This document shows, in pieces, positions 10,538 through 20,695 of a DNA stretch of 64,000 bases (position 1 is the first letter of the stretch; every line of letters begins with the position of its first letter). The position numbers and the translations under genes were made by a program. The notes beneath the pieces are model-generated. The model searched no databases and was not told the origin of the DNA. It saw only the letters and a program-made list of their open reading frames with translations. Source of the DNA: Longimicrobiales bacterium (GTDB lineage: Bacteria; Gemmatimonadota; Gemmatimonadetes; Longimicrobiales; Gaopeijiaceae); the NCBI GenBank assembly GCA_965204735.1, contig OZ242008.1, positions 1,952,001-2,016,000 of the forward strand, given 5' to 3'.

Positions 10538-11701
10538 TTACTGACCCTCCCGCGCCACGAGCGCCAGGATTCTGGGAACGACGCCGCTCTGGTCGACCAC
10601 GTAGGTCGTGTCGCCTGCCAAGGCGAACGAAAGGAACCTGCCGGGCAGGAGCCGGCTCTCCAAGTAGCGGCCGGTCGCCATGGAGTACAGGTCGAGGACT
10701 CCTCGGCCGTCGGAGTCGCCGGCGAGCACGAACAGCGTGTCGCCCGCCGTATCGACGTCGGAGGCAGATTCGGTCGGCCGCTCGGCGAACCACACGCTCC
10801 TCGTCTCGGTGGCTTCCTCCGTCTGCTCGCCGGCCGTCACCTCGGGAAAGTCCATCCGCTCCACGAAGGAATGGGCACGGGTGGCGTCGTCGGCGACCAG
10901 AAAGAACCCGGGTCCGGTCTTGAACGCGAGTCCCCATGAAGCGCCGGACGCGGCAAACACCAGCATGTCCAACTGGATCGTCTCCAGATCCCGGAAGCCT
11001 GGCCAGCTGGGGGTGACGACGGCGGGGTTCTCGCCGTCCGATGGGATTCGCATCAGGTCGATCCCCAGCACGCCGCGCGTCTCGGTCATGCCAAAGAACG
11101 ACGCCACGTAGCCGCTCCCGTCGGCCAGAGCGACCACGTCCTCGGTCATCAGCGCCTGACCCGCGAACGGCTGCTCGCGCGACAGAGTCCCGTCCGAAGA
11201 CAGCCACACGAGCCGACGGTTGCCCGAATCCACGAGGAACGGAGCGTCGGTGCGCGGATCGACGGTCATGGCGCGAACATTGCCGATCTCTCCTGGTCCT
11301 TGGCCCGAGCTTCCCCACGCCCACGCCAAGCGGCCCCCGTCGATCCGCAAGACCTTCATGGCCCGCACGTCCAGGACGTAGAGTCCGCCGTCTGACGCGA
11401 CGTCCAGCTTGTGCGGCGAGGCCAGCAGCGTATCGCCGGGTCCCCCGAAGCTCCAAGCCGTGTCGTAGGCCACGGTCCGCGTCGCGCGAAGCTCCCGGTC
11501 CTCCGTGAACGGCTCGACGAGCTCTCCCGCCTGGTCGTCGCGTCCAGCGGCGGCGCCGTCCTCGCCGTCCTCGGAGCCTCCGTCGGCGCATCCGACCACG
11601 ATCGGCGCGAGGATGCACGCGAACCACCAGGGCTTGGCACGACTCCAGCCGACCGCTCCCCAGCCGCGACGCCCTCTGCCCCAATGGTCGACAGCGATCA
11701 T
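10538..11701 (-). CDS. Beta-propeller lipoprotein (6-bladed/TolB-like family), paralog of 19080-20144
   Basis: Lipobox VVGC; WG.SGQGP.E motif and repeated blade-like segments; ATG at 11701 preceded by GAAGGA. Confidence 0.75.
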   Translation of the reverse strand: MIAVDHWGRGRRGWGAVGWSRAKPWWFACILAPIVVGCADGGSEDGEDGAAAGRDDQAGELVEPFTEDRELRATRTVAYDTAWSFGGPGDTLLASPHKLDVASDGGLYVLDVRAMKVLRIDGGRLAWAWGSSGQGPGEIGNVRAMTVDPRTDAPFLVDSGNRRLVWLSSDGTLSREQPFAGQALMTEDVVALADGSGYVASFFGMTETRGVLGIDLMRIPSDGENPAVVTPSWPGFRDLETIQLDMLVFAASGASWGLAFKTGPGFFLVADDATRAHSFVERMDFPEVTAGEQTEEATETRSVWFAERPTESASDVDTAGDTLFVLAGDSDGRGVLDLYSMATGRYLESRLLPGRFLSFALAGDTTYVVDQSGVVPRILALVAREGQ

Positions 11702-15200: not shown

Positions 15201-17825
15201 ATGTCTGGGCAAGGCGAGGTGGACGGCGTGGAACGAGGCGGGAGCGCGGCGCCGGGCGGCCGCTGGCGAGCTGCGTCGCTCGTGGGCCGGGCTGCGCTTC
15301 TGGCCGGCGCGGCGGGCGCAGTCGCGTGCGGCGACGAAGCGCCGCCGGTTCCGGCCGAGGTCGTGGTGACGCCCGCATCCGCCACCGCCGAGACCGTCGG
15401 CGCGACGGTGCAGTACGCGGCTCGCGTCGTGGACGCGGAGGGGGCCGCCATTCCGGGGGCGCCGGTGACGTGGTCTTCGGGCAATCGAGAGGTGGGGACC
15501 GTGTCCGCCACCGGGCTGGCGACGGTCGTCGGCCAGGGCACGGCGGTCATCCGAGCCGTTCACGAGACGGTCTCCGGCACGGCGTCGCTGGTCGTGCAGC
15601 TGCGTCCGGCCAGCATGGCCAAGGTGGCGGGCGACTCGCTGACCGCGCCGGCTGCGTCGGTCCTGCCGGAGCAGCCCACTGTGCGGGTCGCCGACGCCGG
15701 GGGCGCACCGGTTCCGGGCGTCGCCGTGCGGTTCGAGGTGGTCTCGGGCGGCGGCCGGATCACGCCCCGCAGCGCACTCACCGACAGCGACGGCGAGGCG
15801 TCCACGCGCTGGACGTTGGGACACTTCCAGGGCGTCCAGGTCTTGCGGGCCACGTCGGACGAGTTCCAGGCCGACTTCGTCGCCACCGCGACGGAAGTGC
15901 TGCTGGTGGTGGGCACCGCGCGCTTGGAGCGGGCCCGCCTTTCCTTGGACTATTGGGCAACGCTGGAAGCCATAGGAGGAACGAGTCCCTATGCTTGGTC
16001 GCTGGCGGACGGTGGGCTGCCCGCGGGCTTGGCGCTGGGCGAAGACGGCACGATCTCGGGAACCCCGGAGGGGCTGGGCAGCAGCACGTTCTCGGTGTTG
16101 GTCCGGGACGCCTCGGGGCTTGAGGCCAGGAAGGACTTGGCCATGGTGGTTTGCGAGGCCCCGCTGGCCCTGGAACCCGGAGGCGTGCATGCGACAAGCC
16201 CGGTGGCGGCGGCCTCCGATTGCCCGCCCTTCATCCCGGCCGGCGGCGCCGGCGACCTGTATCGAGTCGGCTTGGTGCGAACCGGCTTCTCCCAAGACCT
16301 GACCTTTGCCGACGTCGCCTTGAGGGTCGTGGAAATCGCCGGACGGCCGACGCCCGGCGCCCATGACGAGTCGGCGCAGTCGGCCACCTCCGGCGCCACC
16401 CTCCTCCCTCTCCCCCGCCCCGCCCCGCAGCTCCTCCCGTCGCTGGAAGAGGCGGCCCGGCGCGCCGACGCCACGGCCCGACTCCACGCCCGTCTGCACG
16501 AGGACGCCGCGCGCCTGCTTTCGCGCTTCGGCTCCGACGCCGTCCTTCCCGACCTTCGCCGGGCGGACCCGGCCCGCCACGACGCCGCGGCGCAGCTGCG
16601 ACCCCCGCCGGAGCGCCTCGTCTTCCTTCCCTACGACGCGGACCGGAACGACAGGTGCTCGCCCCCTGCTCCCACTTCAGCCGCTGCGCTCCTGGTCGGC
16701 TACAACGCCCACCTGGCCGTCTACCAGGACTCGGCGCAACGGGCCGAAGAGCCCATCGCAGAAGCGGACGTGGGTCAGGTGCTCGACTACTACGACGCCT
16801 ACGGCGCAGGCACGATCGACGACTACTTCGGCGGCGTCCAGGACATCAACGGCGACGGCAGGGTCGTCGTCTTCGTCTCGCCGGTGGTGGGCGACGAAAA
16901 CGCCGCGTTCGTATGGCTGGGCGACTTCCTGGAAGCCACGGAATGCGCGTCGTCCAACGAGATGGAGCTGGTGTACTTCAACGCCGACCAGTTCCACGCC
17001 GTCGGCGCAGCGCCCGACAACGGCCACTACCAAGCGATGCCGACGATGGTCCACGAGGTCAAGCACGTGGTCTCCCTCTACCACAGGCTGCGCGCCCGCT
17101 CCTTCCATCCCACTTGGATCGAGGAGGGCACGGCGGAGATCGCCGCCGAAGTCTCGTCGCGACGAGCGATGGCTGCGACGGGCGGCGTGCCCGTGGGCGC
17201 CGTGCTGACCCGCGACGCCTACCCGCCGCGCAGCGGCTCCGTCATCACCCCCGAAAACTTCGGGGTGCTCCTGCGCTTGGCCAGGACCGTCAGGTCGTAC
17301 ACGCAGGAGTACAACTCCCTGACCACCAACCCCACCGACGACCACAGCTACTACGGCACGTCGTGGCACTTCCACAGGTTCCTGGGAGACGCCTACGGCG
17401 GCGCCGCCGACTTGGCGGAGGGCGTCTTCTTCGCGTCGCTCAACGACTCCCTGGCGTCCGCCGGCGCCGGCGGCATCAACTCTGCCACCAACAGCGCCAT
17501 GCCCGCGCTGATCACGGAGTACGCGACCGCGATGATGCTCAACGGAACGACGGCGCCCCAGCCGGTCCGCTCGTTCGCGACCTACGACTTCCCTTCCGCC
17601 ACCTCCGACCTCTTCCGGCCACCGGGTCAGCCCGCCGGCCGCTACCCGTGGCCCGTCCTCGGCCCCACGCCCGCGCCTTTCGAGAGCAGCAGCTACCGCG
17701 CCGGGCTGGCTCCCGCCGGCATCCGCATCCACGAGTTCGAGTCCGACGGTCGGGGCAACGGCATCGAGGTGGAGGTGCGTGCGACGGGAGGCGTCGTCCG
17801 GGTGGTCGTGGCGCGGGTGCGGTAG
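15201..17825 (+). CDS. Surface lipoprotein with several Ig-like domains and a C-terminal zinc metallopeptidase (gluzincin-type) domain
   Basis: VAC lipobox; VTWSSGN…V.TV..TGL and LPAGLAL..DGTISGTP Ig motifs; DINGDG; HEVKH plus WIEEGTAE third ligand. Confidence 0.75.
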   Translation: MSGQGEVDGVERGGSAAPGGRWRAASLVGRAALLAGAAGAVACGDEAPPVPAEVVVTPASATAETVGATVQYAARVVDAEGAAIPGAPVTWSSGNREVGTVSATGLATVVGQGTAVIRAVHETVSGTASLVVQLRPASMAKVAGDSLTAPAASVLPEQPTVRVADAGGAPVPGVAVRFEVVSGGGRITPRSALTDSDGEASTRWTLGHFQGVQVLRATSDEFQADFVATATEVLLVVGTARLERARLSLDYWATLEAIGGTSPYAWSLADGGLPAGLALGEDGTISGTPEGLGSSTFSVLVRDASGLEARKDLAMVVCEAPLALEPGGVHATSPVAAASDCPPFIPAGGAGDLYRVGLVRTGFSQDLTFADVALRVVEIAGRPTPGAHDESAQSATSGATLLPLPRPAPQLLPSLEEAARRADATARLHARLHEDAARLLSRFGSDAVLPDLRRADPARHDAAAQLRPPPERLVFLPYDADRNDRCSPPAPTSAAALLVGYNAHLAVYQDSAQRAEEPIAEADVGQVLDYYDAYGAGTIDDYFGGVQDINGDGRVVVFVSPVVGDENAAFVWLGDFLEATECASSNEMELVYFNADQFHAVGAAPDNGHYQAMPTMVHEVKHVVSLYHRLRARSFHPTWIEEGTAEIAAEVSSRRAMAATGGVPVGAVLTRDAYPPRSGSVITPENFGVLLRLARTVRSYTQEYNSLTTNPTDDHSYYGTSWHFHRFLGDAYGGAADLAEGVFFASLNDSLASAGAGGINSATNSAMPALITEYATAMMLNGTTAPQPVRSFATYDFPSATSDLFRPPGQPAGRYPWPVLGPTPAPFESSSYRAGLAPAGIRIHEFESDGRGNGIEVEVRATGGVVRVVVARVR

Positions 17826-17839
17826 GGGGCGTCGCCCGC

Positions 17840-17938
17840 CGGCCGCTGGATGTCGGGCAGCCCAATGAGGCCGGACTCGATGTCACGGATCAAGGATCAC
17901 AGCTCGGCGGTGGTGGTCCTGAACACTGTGTCGCTCAT
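17840..17938 (-). pseudogene. N-terminal remnant of a DUF262 (GmrS/GmrSD-like) gene
   Basis: MSDTVFRTTTAEL*SLIRDIESGLIGLPDIQRP: matches the DUF262 N-terminal LP.IQR motif, has an in-frame TGA at 17897-17899 and stops before the expected FVW. Confidence 0.65.
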
Positions 17939-17999
17939 CACGGTCTTCCTGCAACGCGTGCATCCACGAGGTCGAGTCAGAGCGCCGTAGCGGAGAAGC

Positions 18000-18215
18000 T
18001 CACGGCATTTCCTCAAAGTGCATTTCTGCTATGGTGCGAGTCTCTCCGTCTACTCGTCCTACTATGGCCCTACATATCTTCCCCTTGCGTGCCGAACACG
18101 ATCGCCGCTGGTCCGTGCATCCGGGCGAGATGCTGGTCCGGATCGCATAGCCGGAGCCCGCCAAGAACATCGTTGCCAGCAGTAGCGCAACCATCAGCCT
18201 GACTCCACGCATCAC
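18000..18215 (-). CDS. Secreted 3-Cys peptide, copy 2 (71 aa)
   Basis: MMRGVRLMVALLLATMFLAGSGYA/IRTSISPGCTDQRRSCSARKGKICRAIVGRVDGETRTIAEMHFEEMP; GTGA overlap with the upstream gene; paralog of 18862-19083. Confidence 0.8.
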   Translation of the reverse strand: MMRGVRLMVALLLATMFLAGSGYAIRTSISPGCTDQRRSCSARKGKICRAIVGRVDGETRTIAEMHFEEMP

Positions 18216-18865
18216 GATGAACTCTCCCCTGGTACGGGTGCCGCTCCCCCCAGGCGGGCAAGCAGACGGCGGGCCTCCGCATCTCGATCCTCCCACAAGT
18301 AATGCGGAACGTAATCTACAAAGCGAATCCGGCCTGCGCCGTCCACGCCGATCACCGCGGGAGTTCCCGTGACCTCCGCGACGGAACTGACGGTTCGCCA
18401 ACGGATGGTCGTATGCGGAATGTCGGAAAAGACCTCGTCAGCCCTTCTCATTACTATCGCCGGCATCTGCGGCGGTGGAGTGTCGGTCAGTCCGGGGACA
18501 GGGGCTGGACCGTCGGTCACCACCAGTCCGAGGACAGAGACTCCGCCGCGCTGAACTCGCCGGGCAACGTCCACGACAGCTCTCATGGTCTGGTTACACT
18601 CCATCGCAAAGAAGACCACGATCAAGCCGCCGCCTCCTTCGCTTACCTCCTGCACATGGCCCTGGAGCTTGGCAGCTTCCCTCCCGTCGATCCAGTAGCT
18701 CAGCGTGAACAGCGCACAGGCAACAGTCAACGCACCGGCGTACCAGCAAGACTTCGTTCGACTCCAGATCAACGACGCCGTCGCGGCTGCCATCTCGATT
18801 CCGCGCCTCACAACTCCAATGCCCTTGGCGCGGGTGCGACAGGGCGTTGAAGCGGAGAAGCTCAC
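18212..18865 (-). CDS. Membrane-anchored thioredoxin-fold-like protein (CxxT), copy 2
   Basis: TM segment, then LIVVFFAMECNQT and GTPAVIGVDGAGRIRF; paralog of 20141-20695; alternative start ATG 18793. Confidence 0.65.
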   Translation of the reverse strand: MSFSASTPCRTRAKGIGVVRRGIEMAAATASLIWSRTKSCWYAGALTVACALFTLSYWIDGREAAKLQGHVQEVSEGGGGLIVVFFAMECNQTMRAVVDVARRVQRGGVSVLGLVVTDGPAPVPGLTDTPPPQMPAIVMRRADEVFSDIPHTTIRWRTVSSVAEVTGTPAVIGVDGAGRIRFVDYVPHYLWEDRDAEARRLLARLGGAAPVPGESSS

Positions 18866-19083
18866 GGCATCTCCTCATAGTGCATTTCCGCTATGGTGCG
18901 ATACTCTCCTGCGTCCTTGTCGTATCGTGATACGGCCCGACACATGTTCCCCTTGCGTGCCGAACACGACCGCCGCTGGTCCGCGCATCCGGGCGAGATG
19001 CTGGTCTGAATGGCATAGCCGGAGACCGCCAAGAACGCCGTTGCCAGCAGTAGCGCAGCCATCAGCCTGGCTCTCCGCATCAC
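18862..19083 (-). CDS. Secreted 3-Cys peptide, copy 1 (73 aa)
   Basis: Signal peptide ending SGYA, C-x6-C-x7-C core, GTGA overlaps at both ends. Confidence 0.8.
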   Translation of the reverse strand: MMRRARLMAALLLATAFLAVSGYAIQTSISPGCADQRRSCSARKGNMCRAVSRYDKDAGEYRTIAEMHYEEMP

Positions 19084-20144
19084 GGTGGAACGAGCCGCGG
19101 CACGAGTGCGCTGACGGTCGGAAGCAAGCCTTCGACATCAACGACGAAAACGGTGTCCCCTGCCATAGCAAACGATGCTGTTCTCCCAGGCAACGAACGG
19201 CTCTCCACGTAGACGCCGCTCGGCAGCGAGTACAAGTCCAGTACTCGTGGTCCGTCGGACGCGCTGGCCAGCACGAACAACGTGTCCCCCAGCGTGTCTG
19301 CATCGTGCGCGGCGTTCCGGCGAGTCGGGTCGACAAACCTGATGCTCTTCGTCCCGGCGGATTCCCGCACCGCTACTTCGTGAAAGTCCGTGTGCTCCAC
19401 GTAAGGATGCGGCCTCACGGAATCGCCAGTCGCCACAAAGAAGCCGTTGCCGGTCTTGAATCCGAGGCCCCACAGATCGCCGCGGCCTGCAAACAAGGCC
19501 ATGTCCAACTGAATCCACTCGAAGTTCTTGAACCCGGACCACTCGGGCGTAACGGGTGTTCGGTTCTCGCCGTCTCGAGAGACGTGCAGCAGGTTGATCC
19601 CGTCCATGCCGAAAGTTGACGCTACGTATCCGCTTCCGTCCGAGAGAGCGACCATGTCCTCCGTCGTCAACACGTTGCCCGCGAACGGCTGCTCGCGCAA
19701 CAGAACGCCATCGGACGACAGCCAAACCATCCGGCGATTGCCGGAGTCCACGAGGACCGGCCCGTTGGTGTTCACGTCCACGGCCATCGCACGGGCGTTA
19801 CCAAGCTCCTCGGGCCCTTGCCCCGACTTGCCCCACGACCACGCAAGGCGACCTGCCGCGATCCGCAGTACTCGGTCCGCACCGAGGTCCAGAAGGTACA
19901 CGCCCCCGTCCGGCGCGACTGCCATTCTCGCAGGCGTGTCCAGCAAAGTGTCCCCAGCACCTCCGAAGCTCCAAGCGGTGTCGTAGGCGACGGCATGCAC
20001 GATGCGGGCGCCTTGGCCTTCCGTGAACAGCGGTGTCGCTTCGCCTGCCGGGGCGACTCGCTCAGCGGAAGTACGTTCCTCCTCGTGGCCGCCGCCGCAT
20101 CCGACAACCAATGCGGCGACGACGGCAAGCCCGCATCGCGTCAC
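19080..20144 (-). CDS. Beta-propeller lipoprotein (6-bladed/TolB-like family)
   Basis: Lipobox VVGC; WGKSGQGPEELG; long identical blocks shared with 10538-11701 (YDTAWSFGG, LVDSGNRR, VWLSSDG, REQPFAG, DGSGYVAS). Confidence 0.78.
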   Translation of the reverse strand: MTRCGLAVVAALVVGCGGGHEEERTSAERVAPAGEATPLFTEGQGARIVHAVAYDTAWSFGGAGDTLLDTPARMAVAPDGGVYLLDLGADRVLRIAAGRLAWSWGKSGQGPEELGNARAMAVDVNTNGPVLVDSGNRRMVWLSSDGVLLREQPFAGNVLTTEDMVALSDGSGYVASTFGMDGINLLHVSRDGENRTPVTPEWSGFKNFEWIQLDMALFAGRGDLWGLGFKTGNGFFVATGDSVRPHPYVEHTDFHEVAVRESAGTKSIRFVDPTRRNAAHDADTLGDTLFVLASASDGPRVLDLYSLPSGVYVESRSLPGRTASFAMAGDTVFVVDVEGLLPTVSALVPRLVPP

Positions 20145-20695
20145 CCTGAGCCTCCCAGCCGTGTGACCAAGCGATGAGCCTCCGCCTCGGCGTCACCCTC
20201 CAGGAGCTGCGAAAGATGGTCGACAAAGAGAATTCGGCCCATGCTGTTCACGCCGATCAGGGCCGGGGTTCCCGCGACCTCGGCAACGGCGCGGACGGTT
20301 CGCCACCGAACGGTCTGTTGAGGGATGTGGGGAAAGCTACTTGCAGCAACCTCCAGCACCGTCGACAACGTGCTTGGCGCCAATCCGTCGGTGATCACCA
20401 AGCCGCGGACGGAAATGTCGGCGGCCTGGACTCGCCGGGCGATGTCGTCGATGGCGGTCATGGTCTGACTGCACTCCAGCGCGAAAGAAACGACCAGCAG
20501 ACCGCCACCGAGATGAGCCAGATCTTGCAGGAGGCCCTGGAACTCGGACGCCTCCTTCTGGTTGGTCCCGTGGCTCAGGGTGAACAAGGCGCAGGCGATG
20601 GTCAGAGCACCGGCGTACCAGTGACGCTTGGCCTGGGTCCATGCCACGAGCGTCGCCCGCGACATCCCGGCAACCCACCTAGCTGTGTCGGTCAT
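20141..20695 (-). CDS. Membrane-anchored thioredoxin-fold-like protein (CxxT), copy 1
   Basis: TM segment, LLVVSFALECSQT and GTPALIGVNSMGRILF; AGGGG RBS. Confidence 0.65.
   Translation of the reverse strand: MTDTARWVAGMSRATLVAWTQAKRHWYAGALTIACALFTLSHGTNQKEASEFQGLLQDLAHLGGGLLVVSFALECSQTMTAIDDIARRVQAADISVRGLVITDGLAPSTLSTVLEVAASSFPHIPQQTVRWRTVRAVAEVAGTPALIGVNSMGRILFVDHLSQLLEGDAEAEAHRLVTRLGGSG

Follow-up and report, generated by a model that had tools for sequence, protein, structure and literature searches.

A conserved, uncharacterised cassette of cysteine-containing peptides, one-cysteine thioredoxin-like proteins and a beta-propeller protein in Longimicrobiales

Do five adjoining minus-strand genes of a Longimicrobiales bacterium form one system, and what would such a system do? 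The genes lie at positions 18000 to 20695 of a 64,000-nucleotide stretch of contig OZ242008.1 (hereafter the window; positions refer to it unless a genome or locus is named), and the five open reading frames (ORFs) of the original prediction were recovered at their coordinates and in the order thioredoxin-like protein (trxA), propeller (prop), peptide (pepA), thioredoxin-like protein (trxB), and peptide (pepB). They represent a real, conserved, and uncharacterised system, and the copy in the window is a three-cysteine, duplicated variant of it. From gene neighbourhood, the locus was tentatively read, at somewhat below even confidence, as a mobile cassette likely making exported, disulfide-folded mini-proteins for strain competition.

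Co-occurrence of the three gene families

A five-row profile of the thioredoxin-like protein matched 26 of 401 genomes of the phylum, and the best 20 of the 29 non-self matches by E-value were fetched (L-numbers denote the loci compared). A same-strand propeller gene was located downstream at 19 of these 20 loci, within 70 nucleotides at 18 and with a 4-bp overlap at 10; at one of the 19, a transposase-like ORF separated the two genes. With the window, L001, and L010 added, these 19 made up 22 thioredoxin-propeller loci, the propeller-less loci L094 and L009 lying outside the count. A filter for short ORFs that combine a hydrophobic signal with three or more cysteines found such ORFs within 1.2 kb at 20 of the 22; of 600 random sites taken from the window's own genome, 12 passed. 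The predicted co-occurrence of the three families in other genomes was thus borne out.

The association was also approached from the propeller side, which gave 33 loci, mostly from Longimicrobiales or Gemmatimonadetes records. An upstream thioredoxin-like gene was found at 17 of them, all with peptides; among the 16 others, two passed the peptide filter, one probably falsely, and one locus had fewer than 400 bases upstream. Presence of peptides at 17 of 17 loci versus 2 of 16 indicates that the thioredoxin-like gene goes with the peptide, as expected of a folding helper. The thioredoxin and propeller trees had well-supported clades in common.

The window's own genome (G000; G001, G002, and G003 are congeners) contains a second cassette, L001 (G000:C1:3669072-3671616), with a thioredoxin-like gene, a propeller, a four-cysteine peptide, and a six-cysteine peptide, and also carries solo propellers. 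Elsewhere, broken copies and copies split by insertion sequences (IS) occur. A tandem arrangement of thioredoxin, propeller, peptide, peptide, and thioredoxin genes at L118:2932-6033 (plus strand) resembles the window in having a second thioredoxin gene after the peptide. Genes for AraC-type helix-turn-helix (HTH) proteins are situated directly upstream of cassettes at L010:8867-9409 and L086:4224-4742, with a second copy downstream at L086. At L087:5993-7379 (minus strand), the cassette is directly preceded by a subtilase-family gene, whose product may be a processing enzyme peculiar to this locus, and by a membrane-anchored ORF without annotation.

Predicted folds and conserved residues of the products

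The gene trxA (20141-20695, minus strand) encodes a one-cysteine thioredoxin-fold protein of 184 amino acids with an ECSQT motif at Cys75 and Thr-Pro (TP) at residues 143-144. Its model (predicted local distance difference test [pLDDT] 89.8) combined a long N-terminal helix with a TlpA/ResA/DsbE-type thioredoxin fold, and the best Foldseek matches were TlpA, ResA, and DsbE (E about 1e-4), in agreement with the thioredoxin-like identity proposed before. The ESM Atlas returned unnamed clusters and TlpA/AhpC-TSA leads. Only C75, T143, and P144 were invariant in 23 homologues. Among 77 representatives looked at, five were gapped at the motif column; the motif cysteine was kept in all 72 aligned sequences, and none had a cysteine at +3. 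The cis-proline position of these 72 read TP in 67 and LP in one, with four unaligned. The motif had originally been described as CxxT, and threonine at +3 was indeed found in 30 of the 50 closest homologues, but only the first cysteine is invariant; by these alignments the family is a one-cysteine family. Having no second cysteine, these proteins are therefore unable to cycle as a dithiol. The N-terminal segment is only of moderate hydrophobicity (Kyte-Doolittle mean of about 1.6 over its best 17 residues), and the membrane anchor of trxA is presumed.

The second gene, trxB (18212-18793, minus strand), encodes the same one-cysteine fold with an ECNQT motif; its longest ORF, 18212-18865, has 217 amino acids from GTG 18865. 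The two proteins share 52-53% identity and are sisters in the thioredoxin tree (support 97/97), with a ratio of nonsynonymous to synonymous substitution (dN/dS) of 0.33 and a synonymous distance of 1.06. Like TlpA, ResA, and CcmG, the family has the predicted fold, a putative N-terminal anchor, and TP at the cis-proline position; unlike them, it has no CxxC dithiol, as the absence of a second cysteine in all 72 homologues shows. Cxxc-type sites ending in serine or threonine are described for monothiol glutaredoxins (PMC2757866).

The gene prop (19080-20144, minus strand) encodes a six-bladed NHL-type beta-propeller of 354 amino acids, likely a lipoprotein, with a lipobox-like Cys16 that at least 90% of 24 homologues share. 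The predicted propeller identity was upheld by the model (pLDDT 87.2, 24-row alignment), whose best Foldseek matches were six-bladed NHL domains (E 9e-13); a profile search of solved structures likewise favoured NHL domains. In the Pfam search of the 24 homologues, NHL was matched in six and DUF5128 weakly in five (E<=0.01), TolB_like was matched in none, and the window propeller itself had no Pfam match. The invariant residues were mostly blade glycine, tryptophan, aspartate, and proline, and no invariant or near-invariant histidine was found among the 24. A complex prediction of prop with mature pepA, each entered as an alignment, scored 0.02, with the fold of the partner uncertain, and weighs neither for nor against an interaction.

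PAL, Drp35, and virginiamycin B lyase were among the lower-ranked fold matches of prop, and several peptides can be served by one propeller. Both observations would suit a PAL- or lyase-like periplasmic tailoring enzyme within an extracytoplasmic pathway for ribosomally synthesised and post-translationally modified peptides. This is considered quite improbable, as the conserved residues include no near-invariant histidine and are mostly of the blade type, the top-ranked fold matches are to NHL domains that bind and do not catalyse, and solo propellers without any peptide are common.

Peptides of homologous cassettes were surveyed in a hand-picked set of 41, with near-duplicates and filter artefacts left out. 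The number of cysteines was even in 38 of them, and the peptide of L102 has eight; the commonest core was C-x6-8-C-x5-7-C-loop-C with an aromatic pair after it. Of 13 peptide pairs compared, 10 had a dN/dS of 0.52 or less and the others 0.71, 0.83, and 1.0, with some pairs saturated; pooled over the pairs, the proportions of nonsynonymous and synonymous differences (pN and pS) were 0.15 and 0.32. Purifying selection on the peptide ORFs is thus seen in most homologous pairs; the window's own pair, which gave the 0.83, does not show it on its own. At L133:4294-4497 (plus strand), a three-cysteine peptide was observed behind a propeller at a locus with no thioredoxin match; it resembles the four-cysteine peptide of L087 but has no fourth cysteine.

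The diversity of these peptides, their acidic charge, and the many solo propellers (16 of 33) would also be compatible with signalling, the mini-proteins being strain-specific signals, the propeller their periplasmic or surface receptor, and the solos listening in; the AraC-type HTH genes flanking at least two cassettes (L010 and L086) point the same way. Signalling is nevertheless an unlikely role, because the conserved core comes without a sensor kinase, an anti-sigma factor, or another membrane transducer, and no regulator adjoins the cassette in the window.

The three-cysteine variant in the window and its genomic slot

The peptide gene pepA (18862-19083, minus strand) encodes a precursor of 72-73 amino acids, starting at GTG 19083 or ATG 19080, with the cysteine pattern C-x6-C-x7-C; its paralogue pepB (18000-18215, minus strand) encodes 71 amino acids, also with three cysteines. 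Both carry the ordinary Sec-type signal that had been predicted, with a basic N-region, a hydrophobic core, and, as read from the sequence, likely cleavage after residue 24. They share 77% identity, and the main difference is a C-terminal predicted hairpin with a net in-frame 6-nucleotide indel. With three cysteines, near-neutral charge, and no tryptophan, they are atypical among the surveyed peptides. Their kinship with the four-cysteine family is suggested by cassette position and by cysteine and aromatic spacing only. In one register they may have lost C4 only; in another, which fits the 7-5-8-4 spacing, they may have gained an extra N-terminal cysteine and jointly lost C3 and C4.

Close relatives of pepA and pepB were found in none of 300 other genomes of the family and only as six database variants, in which A-type bodies are mixed with B-type signals and the C-termini vary; the three cysteines are kept in all eight sequences. 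Five weak non-self matches of pepA in 301 family genomes were discarded, as they had no thioredoxin or propeller gene nearby and their alignments look like shadow-frame matches. A further match at G000:540594 was dropped, since a methyltransferase-like ORF occupies the other strand there. No ESM Atlas entry matched pepA at 0.9 or above.

According to the original prediction, every junction of the cassette could be read as a GTGA stop/start overlap. The sequence does read GTGA at all four junctions, but at pepA-trxB (18862-65) the overlap is probably incidental and not a translational coupling, because the strain variants of trxB differ or are frameshifted upstream of ATG 18793 and are in agreement only from there on; ATG 18793 is the likely start of trxB. 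Each peptide gene is part of a DNA unit of about 245 bp that has been duplicated, and one copy (17978-18219, without strand) is 85% identical to 18840-19087 by blastn self-match and alignment. The unit carries the peptide gene with its terminal GTGA, which is why pepB ends in GTGA with no gene behind it. Given this identical GTGA at pepB, the reading of every junction as coupled was dropped for pepA-trxB.

The cassette was expected to be poorer in guanine and cytosine (GC) than its flanks. Its GC content of 0.633 is below the genome mean of 0.693 +/- 0.035, and third-position GC was 0.65-0.77, compared with 0.89-0.96 in five flanking genes; the dip is modest, because a content as low as this occurs in 7% of 1533 segments of the same size. 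The claim that all products are exported or anchored, judged here from hydrophobicity, agreed with the Sec-type signals of the peptides and the lipobox-like cysteine of the propeller, while the anchor of the thioredoxin-like proteins remains putative. As anticipated, no cytoplasmic modifying enzyme or transporter is present among the five genes, and the flanks encode a pyridoxal phosphate (PLP) enzyme and an immunoglobulin (Ig)-like protein. A promoter and terminator scan gave nothing above shuffles, and no Pfam or NCBIfam family exceeded its cut-off for any of the six window proteins tested.

The slot between the PLP-enzyme gene and the Ig-domain gene is empty in G002, where these two genes adjoin. 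In G001 it is occupied by an intact GmrSD_N-Schlafen gene and a different, split propeller gene, and in G003 by an intact GmrSD_N-Schlafen gene and a propeller remnant. The window retains only about 110 bp of the GmrSD gene, a 5'-end remnant at 17841-17948 (minus strand) identified by its DNA identity of 86% and 80% to the gene starts in G001 and G003; its labels, GmrSD_N and Schlafen AlbA_2, were taken from Pfam matches of those intact genes. The slot is a hotspot of gain and loss, and the cassette is mobile. The adjoining Ig-domain gene (15201-17825, plus strand) encodes 874 amino acids with an HExxH-like stretch, HEVKH, is conserved in the congeners, and has many paralogues; we take its product to be possibly a surface metallopeptidase.

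The odd cysteine number, the dN/dS of pepA and pepB, the variable C-termini of the strain variants, and the adjacent GmrSD remnant raise the question whether the system works elsewhere and drift has left the window copy as a relic, its peptides having lost cysteines and no longer mattering. That is very improbable: the five ORFs are intact, the three cysteines persist in every variant, the indel between pepA and pepB is in frame, dN/dS between trxA and trxB is 0.33, and the trxA and prop clusters have 15 members each, mostly of full length.

A solo sister propeller, prop2 (10538-11701, minus strand), is 57% identical to prop and occupies a second variable slot 6 kb from the cassette, beyond the coordinates of the original prediction; this slot separates a TPR gene, directly after which prop2 is inserted, from a beta-lactamase-family gene. 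It was not found at the corresponding slot in the three congeners, where the slot measures only about 220 bp in G001. In the propeller tree prop and prop2 are sisters (100/100), with dN/dS of 0.32. Their synonymous distance of 0.95 is close to the 1.06 of trxA and trxB; the window may therefore hold two old sister sets, one of them rearranged. Among other propellers, the gene at L044:6478-7248 (minus strand) has lost roughly two blades to a clean internal deletion that keeps the reading frame. At L002 (G000:C1:194408-200514), an ORF for an extracytoplasmic function (ECF)-like sigma factor, an HTH-like region, a solo propeller, and further propeller-like lipoproteins stand in a row, with gene labels assigned by eye; neither a thioredoxin-like gene nor a peptide was seen there.

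Possible function and relation to known systems

Under the tentative reading as a competition cassette, the products would act in three steps. The peptides pepA and pepB would leave the cytoplasm via Sec and lose about 24 residues, as their signal sequences suggest. Oxidising power would come from a general VKOR pathway, since a VKOR gene is present in the genome and no match to DsbB was found in it. The anchored thioredoxin-like protein, having an attacking cysteine and the TP loop and no resolving cysteine, would join the peptide in a short-lived mixed disulfide and could serve as its dedicated isomerase or chaperone. The propeller lipoprotein, to judge from co-occurrence and the matching thioredoxin and propeller clades, would be the cognate partner that holds or neutralises the peptide in the producer. 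Propellers kept without a thioredoxin-like gene or peptide could protect non-producers or let them listen in. In the window copy, the odd third cysteine would be available for a bond between two peptides or for a lasting bond with the thioredoxin cysteine. The roles of the peptide as signal or toxin, and of the propeller as receptor or immunity protein, are suggested by gene neighbourhood only. Signs that resemble those of conflict are seen in the very diverse peptides, the patchy spread (26 of 401 genomes), the variable slot, and the broken or IS-split copies.

Several points weigh against this reading. The peptide filter was drawn up after some of the peptides had been seen, and the locus counts are not independent events, because related genomes were compared and some loci belong to both sets. 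In their mature form most of the homologous peptides are acidic, whereas classic antimicrobial peptides are cationic, and a single propeller can be followed by as many as four different peptides, which differs from one-to-one toxin-immunity pairs. An upstream thioredoxin remnant was found at only 2 of 24 solo propellers, most of which may therefore be independent insertions rather than decayed cassettes. The dN/dS of 0.83 between pepA and pepB was obtained on 70 codons, and when the two were scored against a leave-out profile of the other peptides, 45 and 46 of 500 shuffles scored as high. The cassette encodes no outer-membrane exporter, and periplasmic release is not accounted for by its gene content.

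In a wider version, which is rather doubtful, the cassettes would form a class, so far undescribed, of polymorphic mini-protein systems. One-cysteine thioredoxin-like proteins would fold Sec-exported disulfide hairpins with interchangeable tips, and the NHL propeller lipoprotein would be the cognate receptor or immunity protein, also spreading alone. The spare cysteine of the window variant would join pepA and pepB covalently, giving an effector of two chains that each have a thioredoxin-like protein of their own.

Among known systems, the operon for methylamine dehydrogenase, mauBEDA, also combines a propeller subunit, a folding helper of the thioredoxin type, and a small exported subunit rich in disulfides; that last subunit carries a tryptophan pair for tryptophan tryptophylquinone, and the cluster includes the gene for MauE. 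The cassette differs in having no MauE-like gene, no tryptophan in pepA or pepB, and a six-bladed NHL fold. In NHLRC2-type proteins, a thioredoxin-like domain with a CCINC motif is fused to a six-bladed NHL propeller, and no conserved gene neighbours were found for the bacterial homologues (PMC6107167). Unlike NHLRC2 and SOQ1, the cassette has separate, overlapping genes together with a peptide gene, and no CCINC (longer fused forms were not searched for).

These likenesses suggest a periplasmic three-part redox or enzyme complex, in which the thioredoxin-like protein and the propeller would be a split NHLRC2/SOQ1-like unit with its cleft at the thioredoxin cysteine, and the mini-protein a small subunit, cofactor, or substrate, as in methylamine dehydrogenase. 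The two genes are nearly always adjacent and often overlap, the thioredoxin cysteine is invariant, and a conserved interdomain cleft is described for the fused proteins (PMC6107167). We consider such a complex not likely, given that the peptides have no catalytic residue in common and share only the spacing of their cysteines and an aromatic pair late in the sequence, that pepA and pepB have no tryptophan, that the CCINC motif is missing, and that the cassette is mobile and patchy and not tied to a metabolic operon.

In neighbourhoods of NVEALA (PF14055) in Bacteroidota, a small cysteine-rich exported peptide stands with a six-bladed TolB-like/DUF5128 propeller lipoprotein and a thioredoxin-like gene. 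The layout is similar to that in the window, which differs in the lack of NVEALA and of a TolB_like match and in its one-cysteine thioredoxin-like proteins. As had been predicted, the peptides lack the NVEALA motif: none of 22 matched PF14055 at E 0.1. A search for NVEALA in the window's own genome gave no match, although the control likewise had none. No paper on the NVEALA neighbourhood was found, and as far as searched that system is uncharacterised.

The closest functional likeness, by analogy, may be to bacteriocin clusters with a dedicated thiol oxidoreductase, although the cassette lacks their defining features. In the clusters of bacteroidetocins (class IIf), disulfide-bonded bacteriocins are accompanied by dedicated thiol oxidoreductases (PMC6671954). 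Like these, the cassette is a compact cluster of a Gram-negative bacterium with a small cysteine peptide, and its thioredoxin-type genes may be counterparts of the dedicated oxidoreductase. Bacteroidetocins have a GG leader, their clusters also encode an ABC transporter/peptidase and a transmembrane protein, and the word propeller does not appear in the paper (PMC6671954), whereas the window has a Sec-type signal, a propeller lipoprotein, and neither a transporter nor a transmembrane protein; for the oxidoreductase it has a predicted thioredoxin fold with a single cysteine.

A literature search, mostly without subscription papers, found no description of a cassette of cysteine mini-protein, thioredoxin-like protein, and propeller. 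As no Pfam or NCBIfam model reaches the window proteins and the peptides are short and diverse, the system goes unannotated. A conserved peptide system in Longimicrobiales (Gemmatimonadota) thus escapes annotation, its peptides being too short and diverse for routine mining. The 41 peptides and the matched thioredoxin and propeller clades provide cognate and non-cognate pairs for comparison. If the tentative reading is true, the system would add a source of natural disulfide-locked mini-proteins, a new family of folding catalysts that work with one cysteine, and a means of recognition built on a propeller.

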